64,000 nt of DNA. Source: Elusimicrobiales bacterium (GTDB taxonomy: Bacteria; Elusimicrobiota; Elusimicrobia; Elusimicrobiales; UBA9959). The notes under the pieces were generated by a model. The model saw only the letters and a program-made list of their open reading frames with translations, was not told the origin of the DNA and searched no databases. The translations under genes and the position numbers were made by a program. Location: positions 11,990 to 75,989 of the forward strand of contig JBFXJL010000008.1 in assembly GCA_050174915.1 (NCBI GenBank), given 5' to 3'. This document shows positions 2,255 through 52,400 of this stretch, one piece after another. Position 1 is the first letter of the stretch, and the number at the start of each line of letters is the position of its first letter.

Positions 2255-3676
2255 ATGCCTACACCTCCCCAATATCCGCCCGTCGCCGCACGCCGCCTCT
2301 CTAACGGGCTGCAGGTGCTGGTGCTGGAGAAAAAATTCGTTCCCACGGTCTCCTTCGCGCTGGTCTTCAAGGCCGGCAACGTGGACAACACTCCGGGCAA
2401 GACCGGCCTGGCCCATCTTTTCGAACACATGGCCTTCAAAGGCACCACCAGCCTCAACTCGGCCGGCTACGAGGCGGAGAAGCCGGCGCTGGACCGGGTG
2501 GAGGCGGCCGGGCGGGAGCTGATAGCCGAAGAAAGTTCACCCAGACCGGATCCCGCCAAAGTGGAGCGGCTGCGCGCCGCGCTCGACGAGGCGGAGACCG
2601 CGGCCGACGCCTTCATCGTCGAGGACGAATACTGGAAGCTTTACAGCACCCTGGGCGAATCCGGCCTGAACGCCATGACCTCGGCCGACTATACCGCCTA
2701 CGTGGTGTCGCTGCCCGCCCCGCGGCTGGAAGCCTGGATGGTCATCGAGGCCGACCGCTTCAAGAACCCGGTGCTGCGCGAGTTCTACCGCGAGCGCAGC
2801 GTGGTGATGGAAGAGCGCCGCATGGGCGAGTCCGAACCGGGCCGCGTGCTGTGGGAGGCGCTGCTGGCCAAGGCCTTCACCGAGCACCCGTACCGCAACC
2901 CCACCATAGGCTGGATGGAGGACATCCGCCGCCTGTCGCGCACCGACGCCGAGGAATTTTACCGCGCCTACTACGTGCCCAACAACGCCACGCTGGCCGT
3001 GGTGGGCGACGTGGAGACGGAGCGCGTGTTCGCCCTGGCCGAAAAACATTTTAGCGGCTGGCAGGCGCGCCCGCTGCCGTCGCGCGAGCGCCCCGTGGAA
3101 CCGCCGCAGAGCGGCGAGCGCCGGGCCGAAGTAGTCTTCAAGGCCCAGCCCTCGCTGCGCCTGGGCTTTCACAACCCCGGGCCGGACCACCCCGATTTTT
3201 ACGCGCTGATGATGGCCTGCGAAGTGCTGTCGAGCGGCAAGACCGGCCGCTTCTACGCCGGTCTGGTGGAGGGCCGGCAGGTGGCGCTGCACGCCTCGGC
3301 CTACACCTCTTTCCCCGGCAGCCGCTACCCGTCGCTGTCTGTCATCTCGGCCGCGCCCAAGGCCCCCCACACTACGGAGGAACTGGACGCCGCGCTGATG
3401 GAGGAGATAGACCGGCTCAAGGCCGAACTCCCCGCGGCCTGGGAGATGGAGAAGATCCTGAACAATTACGACGCCGAGATGGTAAAGCAGCTGGAGTCCA
3501 ACTCCGGCATGGCGATGAGCCTGGCGCAGAACGAGCAGCTGCTCGGCGACTGGCGCTACGACTGGCAGACCGGCGAGCGCCTGCGCGCCGTCACGCCGGC
3601 CCAGGTCTCGGCGGCCGCGGCCAAATATTTCTCGCGGGACAACCGCACCGCCGTCTTCCTGAAGGAGCCCGCATGA
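2255..3676 (+). CDS. M16 family zinc peptidase (pitrilysin-like), active subunit
   Basis: Inverted zinc motif HxxEH in HLFEHMAFKGT, with typical M16 N- and C-domain length (473 aa). Confidence 0.85.
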   Translation: MPTPPQYPPVAARRLSNGLQVLVLEKKFVPTVSFALVFKAGNVDNTPGKTGLAHLFEHMAFKGTTSLNSAGYEAEKPALDRVEAAGRELIAEESSPRPDPAKVERLRAALDEAETAADAFIVEDEYWKLYSTLGESGLNAMTSADYTAYVVSLPAPRLEAWMVIEADRFKNPVLREFYRERSVVMEERRMGESEPGRVLWEALLAKAFTEHPYRNPTIGWMEDIRRLSRTDAEEFYRAYYVPNNATLAVVGDVETERVFALAEKHFSGWQARPLPSRERPVEPPQSGERRAEVVFKAQPSLRLGFHNPGPDHPDFYALMMACEVLSSGKTGRFYAGLVEGRQVALHASAYTSFPGSRYPSLSVISAAPKAPHTTEELDAALMEEIDRLKAELPAAWEMEKILNNYDAEMVKQLESNSGMAMSLAQNEQLLGDWRYDWQTGERLRAVTPAQVSAAAAKYFSRDNRTAVFLKEPA

Positions 3677-5016
3677 GCCTGCCCCCCGGCCTGCCCGCCA
3701 TAAGCGCCGTCTCCTTCGCCCCGCCGCGCGGCACCCGCGCGGTGCTCTCGAATGGCCTGGTAGTGCATTTGATGAAGGACGCCACGCTGCCGGTGGTGCA
3801 CCTCACAGCTTTCATCCGCGCCGGCAAGATGCACGACCCCGCCGGCCTGACCGGCCTGGGCGAGCTGACCGCCCGCCTGCTGCGCGACGGCGGCACCGTG
3901 AATTACACGCCGGAAGATATGGACCGGCGGCTGGAGCTGCTGGCCGCCTCGGTGGACAGCAATATGGGCGTGGAGGAAGGCCGCGCCGACCTGACCGCGC
4001 TCACTAAAGACCTGGACGCCGCCCTGGATATTTACGCCGACATGCTGATGCGCCCGGTCTTCGACCCGGAGAAAGTTAAATTCAAGATAACGGAATCGCT
4101 GGAAGTGCTCCGGCGCCGCAACGATGACCCGGGCCGCGCCTCCGTGCGCGAGGCGCTGCGCGCCTTCTACGGCGCCGGACATCCCTACGGCTGGCGCTCC
4201 GAGCCGGCCACGGTGCGCGCCGTCACGCGGGCTGACCTGCAGGCCTGCCACGCCAGTTATTACCGGCCCGGGAATATCATCCTGGCCGCGGCCGGGGATT
4301 TCGGCACCGAAGAAGAACTGCTCTCGCGCCTGGAGAGCAAGTTCGGAGGCTGGAAGGGCGGGCCGGCGGAGTTCCAACCCATCCCCCCCGTGTCCATTCC
4401 AGCCGGGCGGCGGGTGGTGCACATACAGAAGGACGCGCAGCAGGCCTCCCTAGTGCTGGTGCTCAAGGGCCTGCGCCGGCACGACCCGCTGGAGTACCCG
4501 CTGACCGTGGCCAACGAGATCCTGGGCGGCGGCCTCTCCTCGCGGCTGGCCTCCGAGATACGCTCCCGCCGCGGCCTGGCCTACACGGTATACAGCTATT
4601 CGGCCAAGAAGCCGGACTATGGCTACACGCTGGGCTTCTGCGGCACGGCCCCGGCTACCGCCGGCCGGGCCGCCGAGGAACTGCTGCGGCAGTTCGCCCT
4701 GATGGCGCAGGCCGAGCCGGGCGCCGAAGAGACCGCGCTGGCCCGCGACGCCATAGTGAACTCTTTCGTGTTCCGCTTTCCCACCGCCTTCGACCTGATA
4801 GCTGAGCGCGCCGCCTACGAGTATTACGGCTACCCCGCCGACTACCTGGACGGCTACGCCGCCAAGATCTCGGCCGTGGGCCCGGCGGAGGTGCTGGCCG
4901 CCTCGCGGCGGCTGCTCGACCCCGCCGACGCGCTGCTGCTGGTGATCGGCGACGCCGCCAAGTTCGACCGACCGCTGTCCGACTTCGGCCCGGTGACGGA
5001 GCAGGCGGAAGACTAG
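3673..5016 (+). CDS. M16 family peptidase, non-catalytic partner subunit
   Basis: ATGA overlap with the upstream M16 gene. M16-like sequence, but HxxEH is replaced (GLGELTARLL). Confidence 0.75.
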   Translation: MSLPPGLPAISAVSFAPPRGTRAVLSNGLVVHLMKDATLPVVHLTAFIRAGKMHDPAGLTGLGELTARLLRDGGTVNYTPEDMDRRLELLAASVDSNMGVEEGRADLTALTKDLDAALDIYADMLMRPVFDPEKVKFKITESLEVLRRRNDDPGRASVREALRAFYGAGHPYGWRSEPATVRAVTRADLQACHASYYRPGNIILAAAGDFGTEEELLSRLESKFGGWKGGPAEFQPIPPVSIPAGRRVVHIQKDAQQASLVLVLKGLRRHDPLEYPLTVANEILGGGLSSRLASEIRSRRGLAYTVYSYSAKKPDYGYTLGFCGTAPATAGRAAEELLRQFALMAQAEPGAEETALARDAIVNSFVFRFPTAFDLIAERAAYEYYGYPADYLDGYAAKISAVGPAEVLAASRRLLDPADALLLVIGDAAKFDRPLSDFGPVTEQAED

Positions 5017-6168: not shown

Positions 6169-6190
6169 GGCCGCCCCCCGCGGGGCGGCC
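6169..6190 (+). terminator. GC hairpin after rpmB (GGCCGCCCC-ccgc-GGGGCGGCC)
   Basis: Perfect 9-bp stem with a weak U-tract (ATACTTATTT). Confidence 0.45.
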
Positions 6191-6356
6191 ATACTTATTT
6201 CCCCCTTTCGCCCCCCGCCCCAACCCGTCAACAAGAATTTAATATATTGTAAACAAGCCTTTTGTATAATTTTCTTATAAATACTAATAGGAATCTATAT
6301 TGATTCCCTTTATCTCTTTTGCAGCGGTTGCCAGCGGCCAATGGCCGGAGGAATAA

Positions 6357-9300
6357 ATGGAGCAGGAACCTAAATTAGACCCGTCCACGATAACGGACGT
6401 AGAGACGGCCAAACTGGCCCTTCGCTGGGCCGTGGAAAAGATCCACGGCCAGCAGGAGGAGCTCGGCCGGCTGCGCGACGACAACCGCAACAAGACCTCC
6501 ATTAACCGCTCCTTGACCGAGCAGGTAGAACAGAAGACCGAGGTGCTCAAGCGCTGGCAGGGCACGATCAAGACCTGGGAAGAGAATTGGAAGACGCAGA
6601 CGGCCATGGAGGCCGACCTGAAGGCCAAGCTGCGCGAGCAGATCCTCAACGAGGAGGCCTCCAACTGGCGCGCCTCCCGCGCCCAGCTGGAGAAAGAGAT
6701 CCTGGCGCTCAAGAACGAGCTGGCCGCCAAGGAAGGCGAGATCGGCCGCATGAAGTTGCAGGCCATAGACGAGATCCGCAACTCCTCCGAGCTCAAGGAA
6801 GCCGAGCTCAACGCCCTGCTCTCCAAGCACCAGGACAATCTGGCCGCGCGCGAGAACGCGCTGCGCGAGAAGTACGAGAGCCTCGAGCGCGAGCTCACCG
6901 CCTCGCAGCGGGTGCGCGCCGAGCAGGAAGAGATGGCCCTGCGCGAGCGCTACGAGAGCCGCGCCAAGGAACTCTCCGCCCTTTTCGAACAGAAGGAAGC
7001 CCAGCTGGAGAAGTTCCGCCGCGAGCTGGAAGACGCGCACCTGCAGAAGATCGAGACCGGCACGGGCGCGGCCCGCAAGGAGCTCGAGGAGCGCAGGCTG
7101 CGCCTCGAAGAAGATTTCAGGGCCGCCGAAGCCGCGGCCAGGGCCGAGGCCGAAAAGCGCGTGGACGAAGTGCGCGCCGCCGCCGCCGCCCGCGAGGCCG
7201 AACGGCACGCCGCTTTCGCCGCGCGCCAGGCCGCGCTGGAACAGGATTTCGCCGAGCGCGCCGAGCGCGCCGGGCAGGAGAAGAAAGCCGAGCTGGACGC
7301 CGTGAAAGCCGCCTCCGCCTCCGAGCTGGAGACGCTGCGCGCCCGCATGAAGGACGCCATAGAGAAGCGCGAGCAGGACTACGTGAACCTGCGCCTGGAG
7401 ATGGAAGGCCAGCTGGTGGAGCTGGTCAAGAAGCGCGAGGAGGAGATCCGCGCGCGCTACGAGCGGTCCGCCGAAGAGACCCGCGCCAAGTGGGAGAAGG
7501 CCGCCGAGGATACCCGCGCCCAGGTGGGCGAGAACGTGCGCCGGGAGACCGAGCGCCTGGAAGCCGATTTCAGAAAGCGCGAAGAGGAGCATCGGGCCCG
7601 CGCGGCGCAGGAAGCCGCGGACTACCGCGCCCGCCTCGACGCCGAAACCCGCGCCGCCGGCGAACAGCTGCGCGCCGCGATGCTGGAGGAGCAGAACGCC
7701 TGGCTGGCCCGCCAGCAGGCGGCCGCCGATGAGACCCGCAAGGCCCTTGAGGCCGCCCACGCCGAGCGCCTGGACAGCCTGCGCGCCGGCCTGGAAGAGG
7801 CTTACACCCAGAAGGAGAAGGCGCTGGAGACCCGCGTGGCCTCCGTGCAGCGCCGCATAAAGGCCGAGTGGCTGGCCCGCGAGGACGAGTGGCGCCTGGA
7901 GAAGGAAGCCTCCCTCCACGAGGAGAAGGAAAAGCTCAAGGCCGAGTTCGACAGCCACCGCGCGCTGCTGCACCGCAAGCTGTCCCAGTTCGAGGACGAG
8001 CTGAAGCTCAAGTACGCCCAGAAGGAGTCCGAGCTGGCGGACGCCGCCAAGGCCGCGGCCGACGCGACGGCGGCCGAGCTGAAAAAAGAATTCAACACCG
8101 AGAAGGAGCGCCTGCGCGCCCAAGCCGAAAGCTTCAACCGCCATATTGAGGCAAGGGAAAAAGCCCTGCGCGCCGAGCTGGAAGCCGAAGAGAAGAAGCT
8201 GAGGACCGTCTACGCTGGCCGCGAGGCCGAGCTGAAGGCCGAACTGGCCCGCCGCACCCAGGAAACCGAGACCCTGTTCAAGAGCAGGCTGGAAGAAGAG
8301 AAGGCGCGCATGGCCGGCGAGTTCTCGGAACGCGCCGCCGAAGCCGAGCGCGAGCGCCTGAAACTGGCGGAAGAGAAAACCGCGCTGGAAGCCGCCCACG
8401 CCGCACGGGTGCGGGAACTGGAAGCCGCGACCGAGGAGCGCGTGCGCGCCGAGCGCGCCAAGGCCGAGGAAGCCGTGAGCGCCCGGGCCGCGCAGCTGCA
8501 GATCCGCGAGCAGGAGTTGGACCGGCTAAAGACCGGGCTGGAGCAGCAGCACAACGACCTCAAAATAAGACTTTACCAGGACCTGCAGGCCAAGGAGCAG
8601 GACCTGTTCGGCAAGCTCGCCGGGGCCAAGGAGGAGATGTTCAAAGCCCTCAACGCCCACCGCGAAGTGCTCGACCGCGAGCACGAAGAGCGCATGACCG
8701 GCCTTATGCAGAAGGAAGAACAGATGCAGGGCCGCTTCGACGAGAAGCTCCGGACGGCCGAAGCCGGCTACCGGCAGCGCCTGCAGGACGAGACCGACAA
8801 GCTGGCACTGGCCTTCGAGGGTAAAAAAGCCGAATTCGAGAGCAAGTTCAGGACCCGCGAGCAGGAGCTCGCCTCCGCCTACGCGGAGAAAGAAGCGCGC
8901 CTGGAGACCGAGATCGGCGCGCGGCACAATAGCGCGGCCGCCGCGCAGGACAAGGCGGCCGAAAGACGCCGCCACGAGATAGAGGCCTCCCTCGCCCGGC
9001 AGGAGAAAGAGCTGGACCGGCGCTACGCCGAAATGGCCGACAAGCTGCGCTCCCAGTTCCAGAGCGAGAAGGCCGTTTGGGAATCGCAGAAGCTTTCGAC
9101 CCTCAACTCCGAGCGCCAGGCCATGCGCGCCGAGTTCGAGAAGAAGGAGGCCGCCTTCGCGCAGAAGCTCGACGAAGAACTGGCCCGCGGCCGCCAGGAG
9201 CGCACCCGCCTGGAAGAGGAAGTGGCGCTCAAGAAGGAAGAGCTGGAGCGCAAGTACTACGCGGAGCTGGAACGCAGCCGCACCGCTTTCGAGAAGACCC

Positions 9301-9521
9301 GCCGCGAGCAGGAAAGCCGCATCAAGGCGATGACCGAAGAACTGGAGGAAGAGGAGAACCGCCTGACCGTCTGGACGCTGCAGCAAGAGGAAGAATACGC
9401 CAGGAAATACCAGGCGCGCGAGAAGGACATGATGCGCCTGTGGGAAGAGAAGCTGGCCGCGCTGGAGAAAGATCACGAAGAGAAGATCCGGGAGCTGCAG
9501 GAGAAACTCAGGCTGAAGTAG
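6357..9521 (+). CDS. giant coiled-coil protein (1054 aa, E/K/R/A/L-rich), paralog 1
   Basis: GGAGGAATAA Shine-Dalgarno before the ATG. Nearly uninterrupted charged helical sequence with a recurring [KR]E..L...[YFW] unit. No enzymatic motif, TM segment or signal peptide. Confidence 0.8.
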   Translation: MEQEPKLDPSTITDVETAKLALRWAVEKIHGQQEELGRLRDDNRNKTSINRSLTEQVEQKTEVLKRWQGTIKTWEENWKTQTAMEADLKAKLREQILNEEASNWRASRAQLEKEILALKNELAAKEGEIGRMKLQAIDEIRNSSELKEAELNALLSKHQDNLAARENALREKYESLERELTASQRVRAEQEEMALRERYESRAKELSALFEQKEAQLEKFRRELEDAHLQKIETGTGAARKELEERRLRLEEDFRAAEAAARAEAEKRVDEVRAAAAAREAERHAAFAARQAALEQDFAERAERAGQEKKAELDAVKAASASELETLRARMKDAIEKREQDYVNLRLEMEGQLVELVKKREEEIRARYERSAEETRAKWEKAAEDTRAQVGENVRRETERLEADFRKREEEHRARAAQEAADYRARLDAETRAAGEQLRAAMLEEQNAWLARQQAAADETRKALEAAHAERLDSLRAGLEEAYTQKEKALETRVASVQRRIKAEWLAREDEWRLEKEASLHEEKEKLKAEFDSHRALLHRKLSQFEDELKLKYAQKESELADAAKAAADATAAELKKEFNTEKERLRAQAESFNRHIEAREKALRAELEAEEKKLRTVYAGREAELKAELARRTQETETLFKSRLEEEKARMAGEFSERAAEAERERLKLAEEKTALEAAHAARVRELEAATEERVRAERAKAEEAVSARAAQLQIREQELDRLKTGLEQQHNDLKIRLYQDLQAKEQDLFGKLAGAKEEMFKALNAHREVLDREHEERMTGLMQKEEQMQGRFDEKLRTAEAGYRQRLQDETDKLALAFEGKKAEFESKFRTREQELASAYAEKEARLETEIGARHNSAAAAQDKAAERRRHEIEASLARQEKELDRRYAEMADKLRSQFQSEKAVWESQKLSTLNSERQAMRAEFEKKEAAFAQKLDEELARGRQERTRLEEEVALKKEELERKYYAELERSRTAFEKTRREQESRIKAMTEELEEEENRLTVWTLQQEEEYARKYQAREKDMMRLWEEKLAALEKDHEEKIRELQEKLRLK

Positions 9522-9541
9522 CCCCCCCCGCGGGGCGGGCC
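9521..9541 (+). other. intercistronic GC hairpin between the two coiled-coil genes
   Basis: GCCCCCCCCGCGGGGCGGGCC is similar to the hairpin at 6169-6190. No U-tract, so probably not a full terminator. Confidence 0.35.
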
Positions 9542-9551
9542 GCAACCATTT

Positions 9552-12464
9552 ATGTACCAAGGCAGGGAACCGCACGATTTCGAGGACATCCTCAAGGAGA
9601 CCGAGTTAGACTCGGCCAAGATGGTCCTGCGCCTGACTTCCGAGCTCCGTGAGAAGGAGCTGGAGGTGGCCTCCACGCGTTCCCGCAGCTTCGACGAGAT
9701 CCAGCGCAACAACAAGGCCAAGGAGGCCGAGTTCGAGGCGCTGATGCGCGCGCAGGAAGACCGCATCGCCAAGCGCGAGCAGGACCTCGCCCGCCTGCTG
9801 GTGGAGAAGGAATCGGCGCTGTGGCAAAAATACCAGGCCATGCTCGACGACGCCGTGGCCCGCCAGCGCTCGGAGTTCGAATCCGAGCGCGAACTGCTGA
9901 AGGCCGACATCGAAAAGAAAGAAGCGGAACTCGCCGCCCAGAAGAAGAACCTGCGCCTGGAGATGGAAGCCCTTTTCAAGAAATGGGAAACCGAGCGCGA
10001 GGCGGATTTCAAGACCGAGCGCGAGACCTTCATAGAAGAACTCAAGCTGGGCCGCGAGACGGCCAAGAGGGAGGCCCTGGAGCGCGCCCGCCAGATGGAA
10101 GAACTCTGGCGCCAGAAGCTCAGCCAGCAGGAAGCCGACCTCCAGAGCCGCGAGGGCCTGGCCGCCGAGGAGATCCGCAGCCAGATGCGCCGCGAGCGCG
10201 TGGAAGAGCTCAAGAAGCTCAACGACCGCCTGAATTCAGAATTTTCCAAGCGCGAGTCCGAACTCTACGCCCATTACGCCTCCTGGCTGGAAGAGAACAA
10301 GAAGCTCATAGAGGACAAGTACGCCCGCCGCATGAACGCCGCCGAGGCCGAGCACCGCGACCGGGCCTCCAGGCTGGAGGACGCCCTGGCCAAGACCCGC
10401 CAGGAGCTGGACGCCCGGGAGCGGGCCTGGGAAGAGAAATACGCCGAGTTGAAAAAGTTTTACGCCGACAAGGAAGGCGCGCTGGCCGCGGCCGACCGCG
10501 AGCTGCAGGCTCAGCACCTGGTCCGCGAGCGCGAACTGGCCGCCAGGCACGAGCAGCTGGACCGGGAGCTGAAAGAAGAGGCCGCCCGGCGCCGCGAGGC
10601 GCTGGAAAAGAAAGAGCGGAACCTGGAGCAGCAGTTCGCCGCCAACCTGGCGGAGTTCGCCGCCGAGACCGAGCGCCGGATGCGCGGCATAGAGACGCGC
10701 GAGGCGGACCTGGCCAGGCAGCGCGAGGAATCCGCCCGCCTGCGGGCGCAGATAGGCGAGCTGCTGGCGCAGAAACAGCGGGAGCTGGAGCAGACTTTCG
10801 AAGAGCGCAGTTCACTGCTGCGCCAGTCCCTGGAGGAATCCTATAAGATAAAGGAAGGCAGCCTGGCCGGCAAGTACGCGGAGATAGAGCGCCGGTACGC
10901 CGAACTTACAGCCCAGAAGGACGCCGCGCTGGTCAAGGCGGACGGCCTGGCCGCCGAGATAGAGCGCATGAAAGAGGCGCTGCTGTCGCGCGACTCCGAG
11001 GCCAGGAGCGTTATAGACGCGGAGCGGATCCGCCTGGAGGCGGACCTGAAGCGCGCCGAGGAAGGCCTGCGCGCGGACGCCGAAAAATTAAAAGAGGACG
11101 CGCTGCGCCGCGAAGAGGCCGTGCGCGCCGACTACGAGGAGCGCCTGCTGGCCGAGCGCGGCCGCCTGGCCTCGCAGCTGAAAATAAAGGAAGAGGCGCT
11201 GGAGAAAGAGCGCGCCGCGCTGGGTACCAGGGCCGCCGAGATGGAGGTCCGCTTCCTGGAGACGCTCAAGGCCCGCGAAGCCGAAGTTACCGAAAATTTC
11301 CGGGTGCACGTGGAAACCCTCAAGGGCCAGGCCGACGCCGCCAGGCGGGCCTGGGAAGAGGAGCGGGCCGCCCTGGCCGGAGCCACGGAGCAGCAGGCCG
11401 AGAAAGCCCGGGCGGAAGAGGCCGCCGCGGCCGCCCGCCGCGAAGAGGAGCTCAAGGTTTTCTACGAGGCCCGGGAGCGGGAACTGCGGGCCGCCGCCGC
11501 TTCCGCCGGCGCCGCCGCCGAACGGCTGCTGGCCGAGACGTTCTCCGTGCGCGAACAGGACCTGGCCGCCCGGGTGAAGGGCCTGGAAGAGACGCTGGCC
11601 CGGATGACCGAGGAAAACTCGGCGGCGATCGCCTCGGCCGCCGCGCTGAAGGACGAACTGGAGCTGCTGGGCACCCGGCTGGAAGAGAGCGAGCGCGGCC
11701 GCCAGAAGCTGATACAGGAGAACCTGACCAAGGCCCGCGACCTGCGCCAGACGCTGGAGAAAGAATTTTTGGACAAGCTCAAGGACATAGAACAGAATTA
11801 CCTGGAGCAGCTGACGGACCTGACCAAGCGCGGCGACGCGGCGCGCCGGGCCGACCAGGAGGAATACTTCCGCAAGCTGCAGTACGTCAAAGACGATTTC
11901 GAGGGCCGGCTGGCCGCCCAGGCCAAAGACCTGGAAACTTCTTACTTGGAACGCGAGCGCGCCCTGGCCGCCGCGCTGGACAACGCCTACAAGCTTAAGG
12001 AGCGCGCCCTGGAGGCGCGCCAGGCCCAGCTGGAGAGCAACTACCAGGCCGTGCTTTCGGAGAAAGCCACCCGCATCGACACCGACCTGCAGCTGGCCGC
12101 CGACGTCGGGCGCCTGAAGGACGAGCTGGAGCAGAAGAACCGGGCGCTCAAGGAGACCATGGCCGCCCACGACAGCCGCCTGGAAGAACTGGAGGGCAGA
12201 CTGCGCGCCGAGCACGAGGCCCGCAAGAAGAACCTCGAGGACGGCCACCGCATGCGCGCCTCCCAGCTGGAGGCCGAGCGCGCCAAGCTCAAGGGCCTGC
12301 TGGAGCAGGAGCAGAGCCTCGTGAGCGACCTGCAGAAGCGCGAAGCCGCGCTGCAGGAAAGCTACGCCGCCCGCGAGGCGGAGCTTGCGCGGCGGTTCAA
12401 AGAAAGCCGGGAACGGCTGGAAAAAGACTACCAGGAAAAACTGAAAAACCTCAAGGGCCAGTAG
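9552..12464 (+). CDS. giant coiled-coil protein (970 aa), paralog 2
   Basis: Same composition and repeat unit as the upstream gene, with a related C-terminal tail (LEKDYQEKLKNLKGQ versus LEKDHEEKIRELQEKLRLK). Confidence 0.8.
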   Translation: MYQGREPHDFEDILKETELDSAKMVLRLTSELREKELEVASTRSRSFDEIQRNNKAKEAEFEALMRAQEDRIAKREQDLARLLVEKESALWQKYQAMLDDAVARQRSEFESERELLKADIEKKEAELAAQKKNLRLEMEALFKKWETEREADFKTERETFIEELKLGRETAKREALERARQMEELWRQKLSQQEADLQSREGLAAEEIRSQMRRERVEELKKLNDRLNSEFSKRESELYAHYASWLEENKKLIEDKYARRMNAAEAEHRDRASRLEDALAKTRQELDARERAWEEKYAELKKFYADKEGALAAADRELQAQHLVRERELAARHEQLDRELKEEAARRREALEKKERNLEQQFAANLAEFAAETERRMRGIETREADLARQREESARLRAQIGELLAQKQRELEQTFEERSSLLRQSLEESYKIKEGSLAGKYAEIERRYAELTAQKDAALVKADGLAAEIERMKEALLSRDSEARSVIDAERIRLEADLKRAEEGLRADAEKLKEDALRREEAVRADYEERLLAERGRLASQLKIKEEALEKERAALGTRAAEMEVRFLETLKAREAEVTENFRVHVETLKGQADAARRAWEEERAALAGATEQQAEKARAEEAAAAARREEELKVFYEARERELRAAAASAGAAAERLLAETFSVREQDLAARVKGLEETLARMTEENSAAIASAAALKDELELLGTRLEESERGRQKLIQENLTKARDLRQTLEKEFLDKLKDIEQNYLEQLTDLTKRGDAARRADQEEYFRKLQYVKDDFEGRLAAQAKDLETSYLERERALAAALDNAYKLKERALEARQAQLESNYQAVLSEKATRIDTDLQLAADVGRLKDELEQKNRALKETMAAHDSRLEELEGRLRAEHEARKKNLEDGHRMRASQLEAERAKLKGLLEQEQSLVSDLQKREAALQESYAAREAELARRFKESRERLEKDYQEKLKNLKGQ

Positions 12465-12629
12465 CCGCCCGCCCCCGCGCGCCCGCGCGGTAATTTCCCC
12501 AGCGAAAAATCCGCGCGGTCCGCCCGAAAATCACCCGTCGTAATTTTTTAATTTTCAAAAATATTTGTATATAATTTCAATGCGTTATTTGGCGCGTAGT
12601 CTATTATAGAAAAGGCGGTGAAACTTGAA

Positions 12630-14087
12630 ATGAAACAATTCGACAAAAAGATACTGTTCATAGGTTACGGCTCCGTGGCGCAGTGCGCCTTGCCGATGCT
12701 TTTCAAGCTGTTAAAGGTGCCGGCCAAAAATATCACCGTTATGGATTTCGAGGACAAGCGCGAAGCTCTCAAACCCATGCTGGCCAAGGGCGTGAAATAT
12801 GTGCGCGCTAAGGTAGACAAGAAGAACATGGGCGCGCTGCTCGGCAAATACCTCAAAGCCGGGGACCTGCTCATAGACCTGGCCTGGAACATAGACGCCT
12901 GCGAGATCCTGCAGTGGTGCCACGACCGCGGCGTGCTCTACATCAACACCTCCACCGAACTGTGGGACCCCTACGAGGGCGCGCAGGACAAGCACCCCAC
13001 CGAGCGCACCCTGTACGTGCGCCACATGGCCCTGCGCAAGATGGTCGCCGGCTGGAAAAAGGTCGGTCCGACCGCCATCATCGAGCACGGCGCCAACCCC
13101 GGCCTGATCTCCCATTTCGCCAAGAAGGGCCTCATCGACATCGCCACCAAGCTGCTGGCCGATAAAAAAGTGAAGGGCGCCAAGGCCGAGCGGCTGAGCC
13201 AGCTGGTGAAGGACCAGGTCTTCAACGAGATCTCCAAAGAGGTCGGCGTGAAGGTCATCCACGTCAGCGAGCGCGACACCCAGATCACCAACAAGCCCAA
13301 GCAGGTCAACGAGTTCGTCAACACCTGGAGCGTGGAAGGCTTCCGCGAGGAAGGCGTGGCGCCGGCCGAGCTGGGCTGGGGCACGCACGAGAAGACCCTG
13401 CCGCCTTTCGCCTGCGAGCACAAGAGCGGCCCCAAGAACCAGATCTGCATCGCCCGCATGGGCATGAACACCTGGATCAGCACCTGGGTACCCAACTACT
13501 GCATCCACGGCATGCTGGTGCGTCACGGCGAGGCGTTCACCCTCTCAGACAAACTGACCGTCTGGAAGAACGGGCGCGCCGTGTACCGCCCCACCGTGCA
13601 CTACGCCTACTGCCCGTCGGACTCCGCCATCGCCTCGCTCAACGAGCTGCGCGGCTACGACTACAAGCTGCAGCCCAAAGTTCGCATCCTCGGCGACGAG
13701 ATTATAAGCGGCTACGACACGCTCGGCGCCCTGCTGATGGGCCACGACTACAACGCCTGGTGGACCGGCACCATCCTCGGCATCGACGAGAGCCGCAAGC
13801 TCATCCCGCACCAGAACGCCACGACCATCCAGGTGGCCATCGGCGTGCTCTCCGCCGCCCTGTGGATGATGGAGAACCCCGAGGAAGGCTTCTGCGTGCC
13901 GGAGGACCTGCCGCACGACTTCGTGCTCAAGATCGCCAAGCCCTGGCTGGGCAAGCTGCATTCGGCCCAGTCCGACTGGACGCCCCTGAAGCACTACACC
14001 AACGCCTTCCACGGCTACAATAACCCGTACGTGGACAAGAAGGACCCCTGGCAGTTCAAGAACTTCCTGATCACCGACGGCGACTAA
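12630..14087 (+). CDS. hss: homospermidine synthase
   Basis: Strong resemblance to bacterial Hss: GYGSVAQCALP Rossmann start, VNTWSVEGFREEGVAPAELGWGTHE, HYAYCPSD, DPWQFKNFL C-terminus. ATG 12630 is preferred over the track's GTG 12618, which abuts the SD-like AAGGCGG. Confidence 0.85.
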   Translation: MKQFDKKILFIGYGSVAQCALPMLFKLLKVPAKNITVMDFEDKREALKPMLAKGVKYVRAKVDKKNMGALLGKYLKAGDLLIDLAWNIDACEILQWCHDRGVLYINTSTELWDPYEGAQDKHPTERTLYVRHMALRKMVAGWKKVGPTAIIEHGANPGLISHFAKKGLIDIATKLLADKKVKGAKAERLSQLVKDQVFNEISKEVGVKVIHVSERDTQITNKPKQVNEFVNTWSVEGFREEGVAPAELGWGTHEKTLPPFACEHKSGPKNQICIARMGMNTWISTWVPNYCIHGMLVRHGEAFTLSDKLTVWKNGRAVYRPTVHYAYCPSDSAIASLNELRGYDYKLQPKVRILGDEIISGYDTLGALLMGHDYNAWWTGTILGIDESRKLIPHQNATTIQVAIGVLSAALWMMENPEEGFCVPEDLPHDFVLKIAKPWLGKLHSAQSDWTPLKHYTNAFHGYNNPYVDKKDPWQFKNFLITDGD

Positions 14088-14093
14088 GCTCCC

Positions 14094-14125
14094 GCGGGCC
14101 CGGCCGCAAAGCCGGGCCCGCTTTT
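14094..14125 (+). terminator. intrinsic terminator after hss
   Basis: GCGGGCCCGGC-cgcaaa-GCCGGGCCCGC followed by TTTT. Confidence 0.65.
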
Positions 14126-14176
14126 CAGTTTTGCGGCACCTATCACAGCGAACAAGGAGAAACCACAGACAAGAGT

Positions 14177-15325
14177 ATGATCACAAAGAAACAGATGCAG
14201 GACCTCGCCAAGAAGCACGGCACGCCCCTTTTCATCGTCGACCACGATGAAATTCGCAAGAACTACGCGCAGTTCAAGAAATACCTGCCGCGCGTGCAGG
14301 CCTACTACGCGGTGAAGTGCGAACCGATGCCCGAGATCGTGAAGACGCTCTACAAGGCGGGCGCCAGTTTCGACGTGGCCTCCATGCCCGAGTTCATGAT
14401 AGTGCACGAGTACATCAAGAACATGCCGGACAAGAAACGCCTGGCCTGGATCTGGGACAAGATCATCTACGCCAACCCTATAAAGCCGATCGAGACGCTG
14501 AAAGAGCTGGACCAGTACCGGCCCCTCGTAACTTTCGACAACCTGGAAGAGATCCACAAGATCAAGAAGCACGCTCCCCACGCCGGCCTGTGCCTGCGCA
14601 TCCGCGTGCCCAACACGGGCGCGGTGGTGGAGCTCTCCTCCAAATTCGGCGCGTCCCCCGGCGAGGCCGTGGACCTTATCCTCGAGGCCGTGCGGCAGGG
14701 CCTCGGCGTAGAGGGCCTGAGTTTCCACGTGGGCAGCCAGACCACCAACTTCGAGAACTACGTGCAGGCCATCAACCTGGCCGCCGACATCTTCAAGGAA
14801 GCCAAGGAACGCGGCTACGACAAGATGAACCTCCTCGACATCGGCGGCGGCTTCCCGGCCCCGTACGATTCTTCCGTGAAGCCGTTCCAGCAGCTGGCCA
14901 AGACCATCAACTCCGAGCTGGAGCGCCTGTTCCCGGACCCGAAGATAGAAATCCTGGCCGAGCCGGGCCGCTTCATGATAGCGACCGCCGGCACCTCGGT
15001 GGTGCGCATCAACGGCAAGACCGTGCGAGACGGCAAGACCTGCTACTACGTCAACGATGGAGCCTACCACACATACTCGGGCATCATCTTCGACCACCAG
15101 CACTGCAACATGTTCTCCTTCCGCAAGGGCAAGAAGGAAGAGAACTGCGCCGTGTTCGGCCCCACCTGCGACGCGCTGGACGTGATCTCCACCGCGATGC
15201 CGCTGCCGACGGACCTGCAGCTGGGCGAACTTATGTACAGCACCAACATGGGCGCGTACAGCCACGCCTCGTCCACCTGGTTCAACGGCTTCCCGCCGGC
15301 GAAAGTGGTGCACGTCAACAAGTAG
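14177..15325 (+). CDS. PLP-dependent ornithine/lysine decarboxylase (alanine-racemase fold, eukaryote-type ODC family)
   Basis: YAVKCEPMPEIVKTLYKAGASFDVAS (PLP-Lys region), GGGFP, and a C-terminal GPTCDALD active-site Cys region. Confidence 0.8.
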   Translation: MITKKQMQDLAKKHGTPLFIVDHDEIRKNYAQFKKYLPRVQAYYAVKCEPMPEIVKTLYKAGASFDVASMPEFMIVHEYIKNMPDKKRLAWIWDKIIYANPIKPIETLKELDQYRPLVTFDNLEEIHKIKKHAPHAGLCLRIRVPNTGAVVELSSKFGASPGEAVDLILEAVRQGLGVEGLSFHVGSQTTNFENYVQAINLAADIFKEAKERGYDKMNLLDIGGGFPAPYDSSVKPFQQLAKTINSELERLFPDPKIEILAEPGRFMIATAGTSVVRINGKTVRDGKTCYYVNDGAYHTYSGIIFDHQHCNMFSFRKGKKEENCAVFGPTCDALDVISTAMPLPTDLQLGELMYSTNMGAYSHASSTWFNGFPPAKVVHVNK

Positions 15326-15347
15326 CCCCGGGCGCGAGCCCCAAGAG

Positions 15348-15380
15348 AATACCGCGGGCCCGCCCCGCGGTATTTTTTTA
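15348..15380 (+). terminator. intrinsic terminator after the decarboxylase gene
   Basis: AATACCGCGG-gcccgcc-CCGCGGTATT followed by TTTTTTT. Confidence 0.75.
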
Positions 15381-15381
15381 T

Positions 15382-15387
15382 TATAAT
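15382..15387 (+). promoter_or_regulatory. -10 hexamer TATAAT positioned 6 nt before the pdaD ATG (leaderless-type arrangement)
   Basis: TATAAT-TAGACT-ATG with no Shine-Dalgarno. Confidence 0.4.
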
Positions 15388-15393
15388 TAGACT

Positions 15394-15945
15394 ATGTCAC
15401 TACACCTCGTACCCAAAGAAGTTTTTCTTACGAAGGGCCTCGGCCGCCATAAGGAAAAGCTGGCGAGCTTCGAGGAGGCCCTCCGGGACGCCAAGATCGC
15501 CAAGTACAACCTTGTGCACGTCTCCAGCATCTTCCCCCCTTACTGCAAGGTCATCCCCGCCAAGAAAGGCCTGGCCAAGCTCAGCGACGGGCAGATCCTG
15601 CACTGCGTGCTCAGCCGCAACACTATCAACGAGAACCACCGCCTGATAGCCGCCTCGGTGGGCCTGGCCGTGCCGAAGGACAAATCCCATTACGGCTACA
15701 TTTCCGAACACCACACCTTCGGCGAGACCGACGAGAAGACCGGCGACTACGCCGAAGACCTCGCGGCCATGATGTTATCCACCATCCAGGGCGTGGAGTT
15801 CGGCAGCGACACCACCTGGGACCAGAAGGAAGAGATCTGGAAGCTCAGCGGCAAGATCGTGCGCGCGGCCAACATCACCCAGTCGGCCATAGGCACCGAG
15901 GGCGTCTGGACCACCACCGTGGCCGCCGCCGTCTTCCTCTTCTGA
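15394..15945 (+). CDS. pdaD: pyruvoyl-dependent arginine decarboxylase
   Basis: Typical PdaD N-terminus (VPKEVFLTKGLGRHKEKLASFEEALRDAKIAKYNLVHVSSIFPP) including the self-cleavage Ser-Ser. Confidence 0.85.
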   Translation: MSLHLVPKEVFLTKGLGRHKEKLASFEEALRDAKIAKYNLVHVSSIFPPYCKVIPAKKGLAKLSDGQILHCVLSRNTINENHRLIAASVGLAVPKDKSHYGYISEHHTFGETDEKTGDYAEDLAAMMLSTIQGVEFGSDTTWDQKEEIWKLSGKIVRAANITQSAIGTEGVWTTTVAAAVFLF

Positions 15946-16015
15946 CGCTTTAACCCTGCAGGCGGGGCCAGGGCGCCGCAACGCCCCGCATCTTCGGGCA
16001 TTCAACGGAGACACC

Positions 16016-16876
16016 ATGAAATTCAAACCGGCTAAAAAACAGTTCATGCGCAACGACGGCGTAAGCCTGGAGCGCGCGGCTTTCGCGGTACTGCCGGTAC
16101 CTTACGAGCGCACCGTTTCGTACGGCAAGGGCACCCGGCGCGGCCCGGCCGCCATCATTGAGGCCTCCCCGCAGGTGGAACTGTGGGATGAGGAGACCAA
16201 GACCGAGACCTGGAAGCGGGGCATCTTCACCGCGCAGCCGGTGGACTGCTCCCTGCCGGAAGCGAAGTTCTTCCTGCACCTCGAGGGCGTAGTGGAAGGA
16301 CTGCTGTCGGCCACAAAGGCCGTCCCGTTCTTCCTGGGCGGCGAGCACAGCATAACCCAGGCCCTGCTGCCGCCTTTCATCCGCCGGCACAAGGACCTGT
16401 CGATCCTGCATTTCGACGCGCACGCGGACCTGCGGCTGGAATACCGCGGCTCCCGGCACAGCCACGCCTGCGCCGTCTACCCGGCCTCCCGCAGCAACAA
16501 GGTGGTGCAGGTAGGCATCCGCAGCGTGGGCCACGACGAGCGGCAGTTCCACAACGCCGGCAACGTGCGCACCTTCCTGATGCACGAGAACCTGGACCTG
16601 AAGAAGTTGGAAAGGGACGTGCTGCGCGAGCTGAGCGGCACGGTGTACCTCACGCTGGACTCGGACGGCTTCGACCCGTCGGTCATGCCGGGTACCGGCA
16701 CGCCGCAGCCCGGCGGCTTCCAGTGGTACGACGCGCTGCGCCTGTTCAAGGCCGTCTGCGCGAAAAAGCGCGTGGTGGGCGTGGACCTGGTGGAGGTGTC
16801 CCCCGTAAAGGGCTCCAACATCTCGGAGTTCAACGCGGCCAAGCTGGTCTACCGGCTGATGGGCTATTTAAGTTAG
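16016..16876 (+). CDS. speB: agmatinase (arginase/ureohydrolase family)
   Basis: Mn-ligand motifs HFDAHADLR, LTLDSDGFDP and LVEVSP. 286 aa. Sits next to pdaD. Confidence 0.8.
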   Translation: MKFKPAKKQFMRNDGVSLERAAFAVLPVPYERTVSYGKGTRRGPAAIIEASPQVELWDEETKTETWKRGIFTAQPVDCSLPEAKFFLHLEGVVEGLLSATKAVPFFLGGEHSITQALLPPFIRRHKDLSILHFDAHADLRLEYRGSRHSHACAVYPASRSNKVVQVGIRSVGHDERQFHNAGNVRTFLMHENLDLKKLERDVLRELSGTVYLTLDSDGFDPSVMPGTGTPQPGGFQWYDALRLFKAVCAKKRVVGVDLVEVSPVKGSNISEFNAAKLVYRLMGYLS

Positions 16877-28787: not shown

Positions 28788-28880
28788 TTGCCCCAAAAAA
28801 AGGCCGCAACTTGCCGGCGGTTTATATGCTAGTATCTAGGCATACCCCTCTAAAAGAGGTCATTTTAAGGAGATATTAAC

Positions 28881-29129
28881 ATGGCAAACGAGAAATTCAT
28901 GAAAACGATGCAGCCTGACGCCGAACTGGGCGCCGTCATTGGGAACGAGCCCGTCGCCCGCCCCACCGCCGTCAAGAAGATCTGGGACTACATCAAGAAA
29001 AACAACCTTCAGGACAAGGTCAACAAGCGCAACATCAACGCTGACGAGAAGCTCCTGAAAGTCTTCGCCGGCAAAAAGCAGGTCACGATGTTCGAACTGG
29101 CCGGCATCCTGGGCAAGCACCTGAAATAA
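28881..29129 (+). CDS. SWIB/MDM2-domain protein (82 aa)
   Basis: The VARPTAVKKIWDYIKKNNLQDKVNKRNINADEKLLKVFAGKKQVTMFELAGILGKHL pattern is characteristic of stand-alone SWIB domains. AAGGAG Shine-Dalgarno. Has its own terminator. Confidence 0.8.
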   Translation: MANEKFMKTMQPDAELGAVIGNEPVARPTAVKKIWDYIKKNNLQDKVNKRNINADEKLLKVFAGKKQVTMFELAGILGKHLK

Positions 29130-29149
29130 GGCGCCCTCACCCGCAAGAA

Positions 29150-29176
29150 AGGCCGTCGCCTGGCGGCCTTTTTTGC
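29150..29176 (+). terminator. intrinsic terminator after the SWIB gene
   Basis: AGGCCG-loop-CGGCCT stem followed by TTTTTT. Confidence 0.55.
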
Positions 29177-29221
29177 TTGGCCCCCTTTTCAGCAAGCCGA
29201 GAACCGGCCGCCAGAGGCAAT

Positions 29222-52297: not shown

Positions 52298-52371
52298 AGT
52301 TACCTCCCTATGGGCGGCCCGGGACCGGGCGGCCCTGCCTGTAAATTTTACAAAAAAAGACCGGCGGGCCA

Positions 52372-52400
52372 TTGACACTCCGGGCGGCGTGCGTTAGACT
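52372..52400 (+). promoter_or_regulatory. sigma-70-type promoter TTGACA-17 nt-TAGACT, 6 nt before the ATG at 52407 (leaderless-type)
   Basis: Consensus -35, ideal spacing, and a -10 with T1/A2/T6 conserved. No Shine-Dalgarno before the ATG. Confidence 0.5.

Follow-up and report, generated by a model that had tools for sequence, protein, structure and literature searches.

Two very long, adjacent open reading frames in a 64,000-nucleotide stretch of an Elusimicrobiales contig (the window) raise the question of whether they are genuine genes and, if so, what kind of protein pair they encode. Their coordinates and 30-nt separation on the same strand are exactly as given in a preliminary description of this DNA: CC1 (6357-9521, +) encodes 1054 residues and CC2 (9552-12464, +), the more conserved of the two, 970 residues. 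Substitutions relative to close relatives are distributed over the three codon positions as 54/32/156 in CC1 and 36/21/154 in CC2, the sole unpaired length difference of the locus lies in the intergenic spacer, and the GC3 of both frames (0.87-0.88) is the same as that of neighbouring genes. Because the substitution pattern and GC3 follow the + frames, the long antisense frames (e.g., 674 aa at 6375-8399 on the minus strand) are ruled out as composition artefacts. The dN/dS values against the nearest relatives (0.11-0.17 for CC1 and 0.03-0.13 for CC2) indicate purifying selection throughout, strongest toward the ends. Metatranscriptome contigs, which are unstranded, derive from related strains and may include DNA carry-over, tile both genes at a depth similar to that of the neighbouring genes. 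CC1 and CC2 are thus real genes under selection, operon-like and transcribed in situ.

The composition counts agree with the preliminary description of sequences dominated by Glu, Lys, Arg, Ala, Leu, and Gln with few Gly and Pro: Glu accounts for 18-19%, Arg for 12%, Lys for 8-9%, Ala for 16%, Leu for 10-13%, and Gln for 5-6% of the residues, Gly for only 2.2-2.6%, Cys is absent, and the one or two Pro residues of each protein all lie at residues 5-9, inside the first nine. Charged residues (E+K+R) make up ~40% and large hydrophobic residues (LIVMFYW) ~21%, and the net charge is -28 for each protein. The reported absence of a transmembrane segment, signal peptide, Walker motif or other catalytic signature also agrees with the Pfam, NCBIfam, and motif scans; no TM-like segment is found in either protein (maximum KD19, 0.95), and no Walker A motif is conserved among 111 family members, a single CC1 ortholog fitting the loose pattern by chance. 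The unit [KR]-E-x-[EDA]-L-x(3-8)-[YFW], said to occur in dozens of copies, is literally present only twice in CC1 and six times in CC2, which is nevertheless an enrichment over the ~0.5 copies in shuffled sequences.

The main structural point, overlooked in the preliminary description, is the hendecad (11 residues/3 turns) nature of both proteins. Single sequences show a hydrophobic period of 3.67-3.70 residues, a signal that exceeds every shuffle, and their P(3.5) does not rise above background; averaged over the family, the period is 3.675 in CC1 and 3.625 in CC2, with P(3.5) about 0 in both. The hendecad periodicity spans nearly the full length of both proteins, its family-averaged phase is steady across hundreds of residues, and no heptad signal is found in any 110-aa window, except a weak one at residues 1-110 of CC1. 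The core pattern is a, d/e, h, flanked by charged residues or Ala; Leu, Ile, and aromatic residues fill the core, in which the Ala fraction is 0.00-0.10 at the strongest positions, and Ala is enriched at the flanking positions. The resulting seam is narrow, comprising ~3 positions in 11, of which just two are strongly hydrophobic.

The continuity of this seam is maintained by selection. Among 39 indel events, 35 lie within 0.15 turn of whole turns at 3.63 residues per turn (null fraction, 0.30; p = 9e-15), and the same test repeated at 3.5 residues per turn is not significant. In the Ala-rich indel hotspot of CC1 identified on the indel maps (aa 237-267; 7065-7157, +), lineages differ by 11, 18, 25, 29, 36 or 40 residues. 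Phase-preserving natural indels would provide a clean evolutionary demonstration that seam continuity is under selection. The preliminary description had left the choice between a continuous coiled coil and an ER/K-type single alpha-helix, which would serve as a stable, monomeric, rigid spacer with no coiled-coil partner. A near-all-helical chain with a continuous seam stands, albeit not in heptad form. The single alpha-helix, to which the high Glu/Lys/Arg content and the absence of helix breakers would be suited, has no hydrophobic seam; the seam here runs the full length, is phase-coherent and is preserved by indel selection. Since large hydrophobic residues amount to 21% and lie in that seam, and E+K+R reaches just ~40% alongside 16% Ala, this alternative is effectively excluded.

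The strongest autocorrelation lags are 11, 26, and 37 in CC1 and 11, 18, and 7 in CC2; the CC1 lags of 26 and 37 (11+15 and 11+11+15) are the sole hint of a larger internal repeat. Self profile alignment gave numerous matches off the diagonal (E about 1e-11), with offsets that vary, and CC1 and CC2 are therefore diffusely repetitive, a single defined larger repeat unit being rejected. A long-range charge periodicity of the myosin/IF type, as in staggered lateral packing, is not significant in either protein, the only marginal feature being a 13.2-residue acidic peak in CC1.

In AF2 models, at least 95% of each chain is helical, and no non-helical head or tail domain is present. The predicted helices comprise residues 15-233, 238-564, 576-590, 594-837, and 864-1052 in CC1, and 12-198, 212-586, and 597-966 in CC2, giving an extended length of about 140-155 nm for the near-continuous helix. 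These models are of monomers, with pTM of 0.23-0.24, and are silent on assembly. Conservation is concentrated in distinct segments. In CC1, the profile is 0.67-0.93 across the first 240 residues, which include a conserved coil (aa 113-233; 6693-7055, +) homologous to residues 23-165 of CC2 and ending at a G-x-G break (Gly235 and Gly237), where AF2 also places a break (234-237). In CC2, both an N-terminal segment (aa 1-200; 9552-10151, +; conservation, 0.72-0.84; dN/dS, 0.03-0.05; many invariant residues) and a C-terminal segment (aa 700-970; 11649-12461, +; dN/dS, 0.07) are conserved, the latter closing with the tail DLQKREaALQexYAarEaxLarrFkEaRERLEkdYQ. The length of CC2 is 965-971 residues in 37 of 48 orthologs.

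The helix breaks (199-211 and 587-596 in CC2; 234-237, 565-575, and 838-863 in CC1) would allow another arrangement, in which each chain bends back on itself to pack two or three antiparallel helices into an intramolecular bundle about 50-60 nm long, in the manner of an SMC arm, spectrin, or colicin-Ia, and acts as a spacer or adaptor rather than a filament subunit. AF2 divides CC2 into helices of 187, 375, and 370 residues, the last two near-equal, and conserved Gly residues as well as shifts of the hendecad phase occur at or near the breaks. The large indels of CC2 are, however, single and uncompensated (deletions of 47, 62, and 69 residues in helix 2 and an 80-residue insertion in helix 3), a pattern that a hairpin with matched arms should not tolerate, and because they are unpaired we reject the intramolecular hairpin as an obligatory form. 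The confidence at the CC2 breaks is also low (pLDDT just 46-60; pTM, 0.24), and monomer AF2 is known to bend long coiled coils spuriously (PMC11676326). Folding back is thus unlikely, though it keeps some weight. The Walker A/B heads that flank the antiparallel arms of SMC, MukB, and Rad50 are likewise missing from the Pfam and NCBIfam scans, and the indels are unpaired.

The suggestion that CC1 and CC2 arose by tandem duplication is borne out by BLASTP (33% identity over 107 aa; E = 4e-7) and by a colinear profile alignment of CC1 113-1050 with CC2 23-970, whose score of 170 exceeds the 80-125 obtained with reversed, permuted, and out-of-register controls; because periodic composition inflates the nominal hhalign E-values, so that reversed controls still reach E about 1e-8, we used the score margin as the measure of paralogy. 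The similarity noted between the C-terminal tails holds in part: the CC2 tail is conserved, but the CC1 tail motif LEKDHEEK is not kept among CC1 orthologs. In each of the 57 Elusimicrobia species genomes or loci retrieved (57/57), CC1 directly precedes CC2, and among the 50 genomes that contain both genes the spacer mostly measures 1-37 nt. Even the most divergent lineage keeps the pair, in a different gene neighbourhood. Elsewhere, rpmB, UPF0047, a thioesterase, M16 peptidases, and polyamine genes are the conserved neighbours, and these give no link to cell shape or division. The best reading is that CC1 and CC2 are ancient tandem paralogs forming a co-transcribed pair.

Scans of full-length CC1 and CC2 against Pfam, NCBIfam, PADLOC, and PHROGs gave no meaningful match and nothing from a defence or phage family; searches of PDB sequences with profiles of the CC2, CC1, and CC1-head alignments gave nothing significant, and Foldseek found no match in the PDB for either AF2 model. 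When 1.84 billion representative proteins were searched with a profile, the CC1-CC2 family alone was recovered. Nine weak profile matches that we inspected, including all five of at least 1000 aa, are unrelated proteins that also have a periodicity of 3.6-3.67; the DivIVA motif is absent from all nine, and the 1325-aa match (P0092) is not Scy. As judged from these searches, the family is restricted to a single lineage, Elusimicrobia, and it is best read as a new, unannotated family of a known kind. None of the matches bears the name of a cultured strain among the names given by their source, and none of the top-ranked papers on either hendecads or Elusimicrobia mentions both. The preliminary description had recognized no specific similarity to a characterized family, and had named as evidence against itself a well-characterized family, a disrupted or non-conserved pair in relatives, or expression support for the antisense frames; the searches found no such family, the pair is intact in relatives, and coding resides in the sense frames.

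The first 112 residues of CC1 (6357-6692, +) form a Trp-rich head without counterpart in CC2, carrying the motifs LDPSxIxDVETAxLALRW and RWQxTIKTWEENWK. Asp8, Pro9, Asp14, Glu16, Thr17, Leu20-Trp24, Trp67, Trp74, and Trp78 are invariant in 11 sequences, some of which are only 24-38% identical overall. Since a search with the head alone retrieves CC1 fragments only, the head occurs in no other architecture. The Pfam family PF06005 (ZapB) matches all seven heads tested (E, 1e-6 to 0.05) and is the top match in six, with a constant register (CC1 aa 24/25-71/72 against profile positions 16-63 of 71); precomputed PF06005 matches also exist on four fragments. If the scaffold idea developed below is narrowed to cell division, the head would be a divergent ZapB-like module and the pair would work at the divisome, in Z-ring or chromosome-terminus linkage, instead of as a general cytoskeleton. 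All seven scores (14.6-29.5 bits) are nevertheless under the Pfam gathering cutoff of 31.5, the CC1 head profile does not retrieve ZapB from PDB sequences even at E <= 10, and division genes are missing from the conserved neighbourhood. ZapB is a small, division-associated protein of ~80 aa, against the 1054 aa of CC1, and because it is itself a simple coiled coil, its likeness to residues 25-72 of CC1 may be generic; we regard a divisome role as rather doubtful.

Among the closest known systems are Scy and FilP of Streptomyces (Actinobacteria). The scy and filP genes are adjacent and on the same strand, and Scy exceeds 1300 aa; CC1 and CC2 are both about 1000 aa, paralogous, and from Elusimicrobia. 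Both FilP and Scy form dimeric coiled coils that include extended hendecads with Ala-rich hydrophobic cores, and the DivIVA-like group of cytoskeletal or polarisome proteins to which they belong is defined by the N-terminal motif RGYDxxEVD (PMC9858780). Both pairs are long, non-enzymatic coiled-coil rods, near-straight with a periodicity of 3.63-3.68 in CC1 and CC2, and the extended hendecad rod of Scy and FilP (about 3.64-3.67) is found in CC1 and CC2. Because Scy and FilP also contain hendecads, the comparison, already drawn in the preliminary description, fits better than could be appreciated there; it is an analogy only, as the DivIVA-like motif GY[DN]xx[QE]V[DN], strict or relaxed, occurs in 0 of 57 CC1 and 0 of 54 CC2 sequences, and no Pfam DivIVA match is obtained at E <= 1. 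In contrast to the Ala-rich cores of Scy and FilP, those of CC1 and CC2 consist of Leu, Ile, and aromatic residues, and a dominant 51-residue repeat is missing. Since the cores carry large residues instead of Ala, the oligomeric state of CC1 and CC2 may differ from the Scy and FilP dimers.

Pairing of the kind seen here is known from the Anabaena zicK and zacK, neighbouring CCRP genes whose products form an obligate, nucleotide-free heteropolymer (bioRxiv 10.1101/553073). As with CC1 and CC2, two coiled-coil-rich proteins (ZicK/ZacK; Alr4504/Alr4505) are encoded close together, although an exhaustive profile search found no sequence similarity between the two pairs. That CC1 and CC2 always occur together and lie so close to each other suggests, by analogy, a similar interdependence. 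A full-length, in-register CC1:CC2 heterodimer is unlikely, because the lengths of the two proteins do not covary across orthologs (rho = 0.07), and it was rejected. Crescentin and other IF-like proteins resemble CC1 and CC2 in having a long alpha-helical rod divided into segments, conserved ends of that rod, short linkers, and no nucleotide-binding motif. IF-like rods are heptad-based with a stutter, whereas the heptad power of CC1 and CC2 is nil and they have no non-helical head or tail. Both proteins do fall within the operational class of CCRPs, having a mostly helical rod and no other domain.

The 11-residue periodicity is also a hallmark of apolipoproteins, perilipins, alpha-synuclein, and group-3 LEA proteins, and CC1 and CC2 could accordingly be imagined as amphipathic 11-mer proteins that lie flat on a membrane or lipid surface or act as stress protectants. 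Besides the periodicity shared with apolipoproteins A-I and A-IV and the others, the profile matches to apolipoprotein A-IV (E = 0.75-0.89) are marginal and not significant. The narrow seam suits helix-helix packing better than a broad lipid face, the strongly negative charge (-28 per protein) disfavours anionic bacterial membranes, the Pro punctuation of the apolipoprotein 22-mers is missing, and Pfam gives no apolipoprotein or LEA match; conserved, specific end domains and the fixed length of CC2 would be unexpected for a generic lipid binder. We consider such a role improbable.

With a probability of about one half, we therefore favour a two-component, nucleotide-independent cytoplasmic filament or scaffold that resembles Scy-FilP or ZicK-ZacK by analogy, without homology. 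How CC1 and CC2 oligomerize, orient themselves, and co-assemble, as well as their cytoskeletal role, is inferred in what follows. Each protein would fold to a near-uninterrupted alpha-helix of about 950-1040 residues and, because the seam has hendecad periodicity, would pack into coiled-coil rods that are nearly straight and not supercoiled, reaching about 140-155 nm when fully extended. CC1 and CC2 might each form parallel homo-oligomeric rods, which would join via their conserved ends (residues 1-200 and 700-970 of CC2, and 113-233 of CC1, homologous to the CC2 N-terminus), with the Trp-rich head of CC1 as a possible docking or capping module. Acting in this way, the pair would resemble IF-like or CCRP cytoskeletal proteins in the ultra-small Elusimicrobiales cells. 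Counting against this reading are the non-significant charge periodicity, the conserved neighbours that point to neither cell shape nor division, and the large residues in the cores where Scy and FilP have Ala.

Long coiled coils that depart from the heptad are uncommon and little understood, and CC1 and CC2 would be among the longer hendecad rods on record; the pair comes from uncultured organisms of a phylum with very small cells and almost no cell biology. If it is a filament system, nucleotide-independent bacterial cytoskeletons would extend to Elusimicrobia, and paired CCRPs that depend on each other would gain a second example; if not, the family would still merit a Pfam entry. More speculatively, and with little likelihood in our estimate, an obligate two-component hendecad filament could be the lineage-defining cytoskeleton of these cells, with CC2 as a fixed-length strut or ruler and CC1 as an adaptable partner docked by its Trp-rich head. 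The 965-971 residues of CC2 (about 142 nm), kept in most species despite only 40-80% sequence identity, would then make a ruler comparable in size with the diameter of the cell, the variation of CC1 in 11-residue steps would reflect its adaptability, and straight rather than supercoiled coiled coils would constitute a structurally new class of bacterial cytoskeleton.

The DNA flanking the pair delimits it as a unit. Upstream, rpmB (L28; 5949-6143, identified by Pfam) is followed by its terminator, a hairpin (6169-6190, +; -24.7 kcal/mol; z = -3.9 relative to shuffles) whose 9-bp stem is all GC and is conserved in relatives, and which marks the upstream boundary. The preliminary description had related this hairpin to one at 9521-9541; the two regions do share an exact 14-mer, CCCCCGCGGGGCGG, at 6175 and 9525, and the first hairpin is strong, but the GC-rich palindrome of the 30-nt spacer (9522-9551, +) shows no folding advantage over shuffled sequences (z = +0.2). 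Since spacers shrink to as little as 1 nt in relatives, the spacer hairpin is not conserved, and a regulatory element at this position was rejected. The strong Shine-Dalgarno sequence claimed for CC1 is read directly as GGAGG (6347-6351, +), 5 nt before the ATG, and is invariant in eight relatives. About 90 nt upstream of CC1, an AT-rich promoter-like block (6230-6273, +) with TATAAT at 6265-6270 is near-invariant in eight aligned species, in which the flanking intergenic DNA is not alignable, and 24 of 59 loci carry an exact copy of its 21-nt core, which in each of them lies about 95-110 nt upstream of CC1. The 5' half of the block is found at the CC1-CC2 locus only, and the -10-like core occurs four times in the window, where 0.09 copies would be expected, and three of the four lie just upstream of gene starts. 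Downstream of CC2, GC-rich hairpins (12465-12520, +; -28.3 kcal/mol; z = -1.9) probably mark the end of the transcription unit, and the next promoter-like -10 motif follows at 12565-12577.

The open reading frames CC1 (6357–9521, plus strand, 1054 residues) and CC2 (9552–12464, plus strand, 970 residues), separated by a spacer of 30 nt, were both confirmed. Residue counts of the two proteins agreed with the preliminary description of sequences rich in Glu, Arg, Lys, Ala, Leu, and Gln with scarce Gly and Pro: about 43% of the residues are charged, Ala accounts for 16% and Gly for 2.2–2.6%, Pro is confined to the first nine residues, and the net charge is −28 for each protein. Long antisense and out-of-frame ORFs overlap the region; the substitution pattern, GC3, and dN/dS identify the plus-strand frames, not the antisense ones, as coding. 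Substitutions by codon position relative to relatives 93–95% identical were 54/32/156 in CC1 and 36/21/154 in CC2, the sole unpaired length difference from these relatives being located in the intergenic spacer. GC3 (0.87–0.88) and GC2 (0.38–0.39) match those of other genes in the window, and dN/dS is 0.03–0.17 across each third of both genes. In four metatranscriptomes from sediment and wastewater, contigs 88–99% identical to the window tile CC1 and CC2 at a depth similar to that over rpmB (ribosomal protein L28, 5′ of CC1) and the downstream genes, providing modest, unstranded support for transcription in situ.

The hydrophobic power of both proteins peaks at 3.67–3.70 residues, above all 300 shuffles, with the power at 3.5 remaining at background, which rules out a heptad coiled coil for either protein. 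Self-similarity by BLOSUM scores shows lags of 11, 26, and 37 in CC1 (z up to 7.7) and of 11, 18, and 7 in CC2. The best period lies between 3.56 and 3.74 in all 110-residue windows except the first of CC1, and averages over the family alignments give sharper peaks (3.675 for CC1 and 3.625 for CC2) with harmonics at 11/5. The 11/3 phase is steady across hundreds of residues (e.g., CC1 45–330), and position-specific composition reveals a hendecad core of positions a, d/e, and h, two of which are 64–76% hydrophobic with the third shared, flanked by Ala and charged residues. The single ER/K helix considered previously is excluded by this hydrophobic seam. Internal indels in the orthologs compared (54 of CC1 and 50 of CC2) are 4, 7, 11, 15, 18, 22, 26, 29, 33, 40, 47, 58, 62, 69, and 80 residues long. 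With 3.63 residues per turn, 35 of the 39 events come within 0.15 turn of an integral number of turns (null, 0.30; p = 9e-15); with 3.5 residues per turn, the result was not significant. Such phase restriction constitutes direct evolutionary evidence for a need to keep a single apolar seam unbroken along the molecule. We regard CC1 and CC2 as hendecad coiled-coil structural proteins, with a probability of about 0.85.

AlphaFold2 models from the family alignments (pLDDT, 66–69; pTM, 0.23–0.24) place nearly every residue in helices, predicted at residues 15–233, 238–564, 576–590, 594–837, and 864–1052 of CC1 and 12–198, 212–586, and 597–966 of CC2. With the textbook helix rise of ~0.15 nm per residue, fully extended rods would be ~155 nm (CC1) and ~143 nm (CC2) long. 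That the two genes are tandem paralogs, as proposed in the preliminary description, is borne out by BLASTP (CC1 113–208 against CC2 23–129; 33% identity over 107 residues; E = 4e-7) and by a profile–profile alignment colinear throughout (CC1 113–1050 with CC2 23–970; 848 columns; score, 170). Since periodic composition inflates such scores, paralogy was judged not by the nominal E = 3e-19 but by the margin over controls (reversed, 80–82; permuted, 104; out-of-register, 121–125; self off-diagonals, ~100). The head of CC1 (residues 1–112), additional to the CC2-homologous part, contains many invariant Trp residues and the motifs LDPSxIxDVETAxLALRW and RWQxTIKTWEENWK, and is conserved even in a 1171-residue CC1-type protein of 24% overall identity (P0015; contig L059, 1370–4885); searches with it retrieve CC1 fragments only. 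The conserved part of CC1 comprises residues 1–233; a G-x-G break, an indel hotspot rich in Ala (residues 237–267), and a variable rod come next. The total length of CC1 ranges from 746 to 1123 residues. CC2 is conserved at both ends (residues 1–200 and 700–970) with a variable middle, and is 965–971 residues long in 37 of 48 genomes.

The window derives from an uncultured Elusimicrobia bacterium, whose CC2 is 95% identical to those of the MAGs HGW-Elusimicrobia-3 and GWB2_63_16, and its sequence is contained in landfill, wastewater, groundwater, and sediment metagenomes. Relatives of CC2 occur in 57 species-level genomes, every one an Elusimicrobia/Elusimicrobiales MAG, and a CC1 ortholog lies directly upstream on the same strand in all 57, mostly with a spacer of 1–37 nt and frequently of one base. 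The upstream genes (two M16 peptidases, thioesterase, UPF0047, and ribosomal protein L28) are mostly retained; the downstream polyamine cluster persists in some members of the family only. The most divergent pair (1044 and 1004 residues; 35–38% identity; 21-nt spacer) is located among sugar-nucleotide genes; the pair is thus a conserved unit that stays while its neighbourhood changes. The gene immediately downstream of P0015, where a CC2 partner would be, is on the opposite strand in a contig of 6.3 kb only, and P0015 may represent a solo or rearranged form.

Upstream of CC1, a strong terminator-like hairpin (6169–6190; z = −3.9) follows rpmB, and a 44-nt AT-rich block, AACAAGAATTTAATATATTGTAAACAAGCCTTTTGTATAATTT (6230–6273, with TATAAT at 6265–6270), is nearly invariant in eight species (~48 alignment columns including conserved flanks) whose CC1 proteins are only 54–71% identical. 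An exact copy of its 21-nt core is present at 24 of 59 loci, in each case ~95–110 nt upstream of CC1. Because its 5′ half is unique to the locus, the block might serve as an operator or a UP-like element and not just as a promoter. The −10-like motif TTTTGTATAATTT (up to two mismatches) occurs four times in the window (0.09 expected), at 2220–2232, 6260–6272, 12565–12577, and 52343–52355 (minus strand), and is probably the −10 consensus of housekeeping promoters of this organism; three copies sit 35–95 nt upstream of gene starts, the copy at 52343 lies within the called ORF 51215–52378, very close to its 5′ end, and no canonical −35 was found at 17 nt. Together with the rpmB terminator and the conserved block, the GGAGG of CC1, invariant in the eight species, and GC-rich hairpins 3′ of CC2, before the motif at 12565, give CC1–CC2 the appearance of a bicistronic operon under a promoter or operator of its own that is strongly conserved. 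As for the GC hairpin described in the spacer, the palindrome is present but folds no better than shuffles and is missing where the spacer is 1 nt. The exact 14-mer CCCCCGCGGGGCGG is common to the rpmB terminator (6175–6188) and the spacer (9525–9538); when up to two mismatches are allowed, its 10 occurrences in the window do not amount to an enrichment over the 7.1 expected, so it is not a dispersed repeat family there. A small hairpin, GGAATC-N6-GATTCC (6290–6307), in the presumed 5′ UTR of CC1 has similar, non-identical stems at the same place in relatives (GGGATT...GATTCC and GGGAT...ATCCC), a hint that the structure is conserved.

All database homologs of CC1 and CC2 are "hypothetical" or unnamed. 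In a profile search of 1.84 billion representative proteins, strong E-values were restricted to the family, each of the 15 matches at ≤1e-30 being a member or a fragment of one. Weak matches belong to unrelated lineages (e.g., a Picozoa eukaryote and a Beijerinckiaceae MAG); those inspected for the CC2 profile (P0086, P0088, P0089, and P0091–P0096) all have periods of 3.59–3.67 and no heptad signal, and large uncharacterised hendecad proteins appear to be widespread. Consistent with the preliminary description, no enzymatic, membrane-spanning, secretion, or nucleotide-binding feature was found in either protein, nor any defence or phage signature. No Pfam model covers the family, and no literature on it was found among the papers available. 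CC1–CC2 forms a family that lacks annotation and is restricted to Elusimicrobiales; it is new within a known kind, the long bacterial scaffold proteins whose coiled coils have hendecad periodicity. Its interest lies in the near-uninterrupted hendecad register of ~1000 residues, indels restricted by helical phase, strict pairing with one partner of fixed length, and a promoter block under strong conservation.

Streptomyces Scy and FilP are encoded by adjacent genes. Both form coiled-coil dimers that contain extended hendecad stretches (PMC9858780), and the likeness proposed previously holds in that these rods are closest in kind to CC1 and CC2; it fails in that the defining motif of the Scy/FilP/DivIVA-like group, GY[DN]xx[QE]V[DN], is absent from all 111 CC1/CC2 sequences, and in that CC1 and CC2 lack the Ala-rich core of the group. 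Anabaena offers a second system close in kind, ZicK and ZacK, which are encoded by neighbouring CCRP genes and each of which polymerises only with the other (bioRxiv 10.1101/553073). Crescentin-type IF-like proteins are heptad-based, unlike CC1 and CC2, and SMC-type proteins need ATPase heads, which CC1 and CC2 do not have. By analogy, CC1–CC2 would thus function like a CCRP or IF-like scaffold outside all named families compared.

An 11/3 seam specifies helix bundles that are almost straight and supercoil little (PMC9858780, PMC11651203). CC1 and CC2 are co-transcribed, selected, paralogous, and essentially all-helical with a continuous hendecad seam. Each may form extended parallel homo-oligomeric rods, which would associate end-to-end or laterally through the conserved ends and contact each other via the homologous N-terminal coils, while the CC1 head might dock the assembly onto something else. 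The chances that a nucleotide-independent filament or scaffold of this kind forms in the uncultured hosts seem about even. Folding of each protein into an obligatory intramolecular hairpin is excluded because the large natural indels are unpaired, and a full-length in-register CC1:CC2 heterodimer because CC1 length and CC2 length are uncorrelated (Spearman, 0.07; p = 0.63). The narrow seam, the strongly negative charge, and the specificity of the conserved ends argue against a role as lipid-binding 11-mer proteins. For the CC1 head, a ZapB-like division role is a lead only: PF06005 matches in a single register in seven of seven head sequences, but at 14.6–29.5 bits, below the cutoff of 31.5, and the head profile finds no ZapB in the PDB.

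Downstream of CC2, the polyamine biosynthesis cluster (12618–16876) encodes a saccharopine-dehydrogenase-like enzyme of the carboxy(nor)spermidine dehydrogenase or homospermidine synthase type, an Orn/DAP-type PLP decarboxylase, a pyruvoyl-dependent arginine decarboxylase, and an agmatinase/arginase-family protein. Three ORFs chosen by a GC3 heuristic, 28860–29195 (minus), 49147–49587 (plus), and 63311–63991 (minus), have odd codon-position GC (GC3 of 0.54, or GC1 of 0.85–0.86), and may represent miscalled genes, non-coding sequence, or foreign DNA. Further upstream, a sigma-54-dependent response regulator (666–2018) is followed by tandem M16 (insulinase-like) peptidase genes (2255–3676 and 3673–5016), which overlap by 4 nt and are probably the genes for both subunits of a processing peptidase of heterodimeric type.
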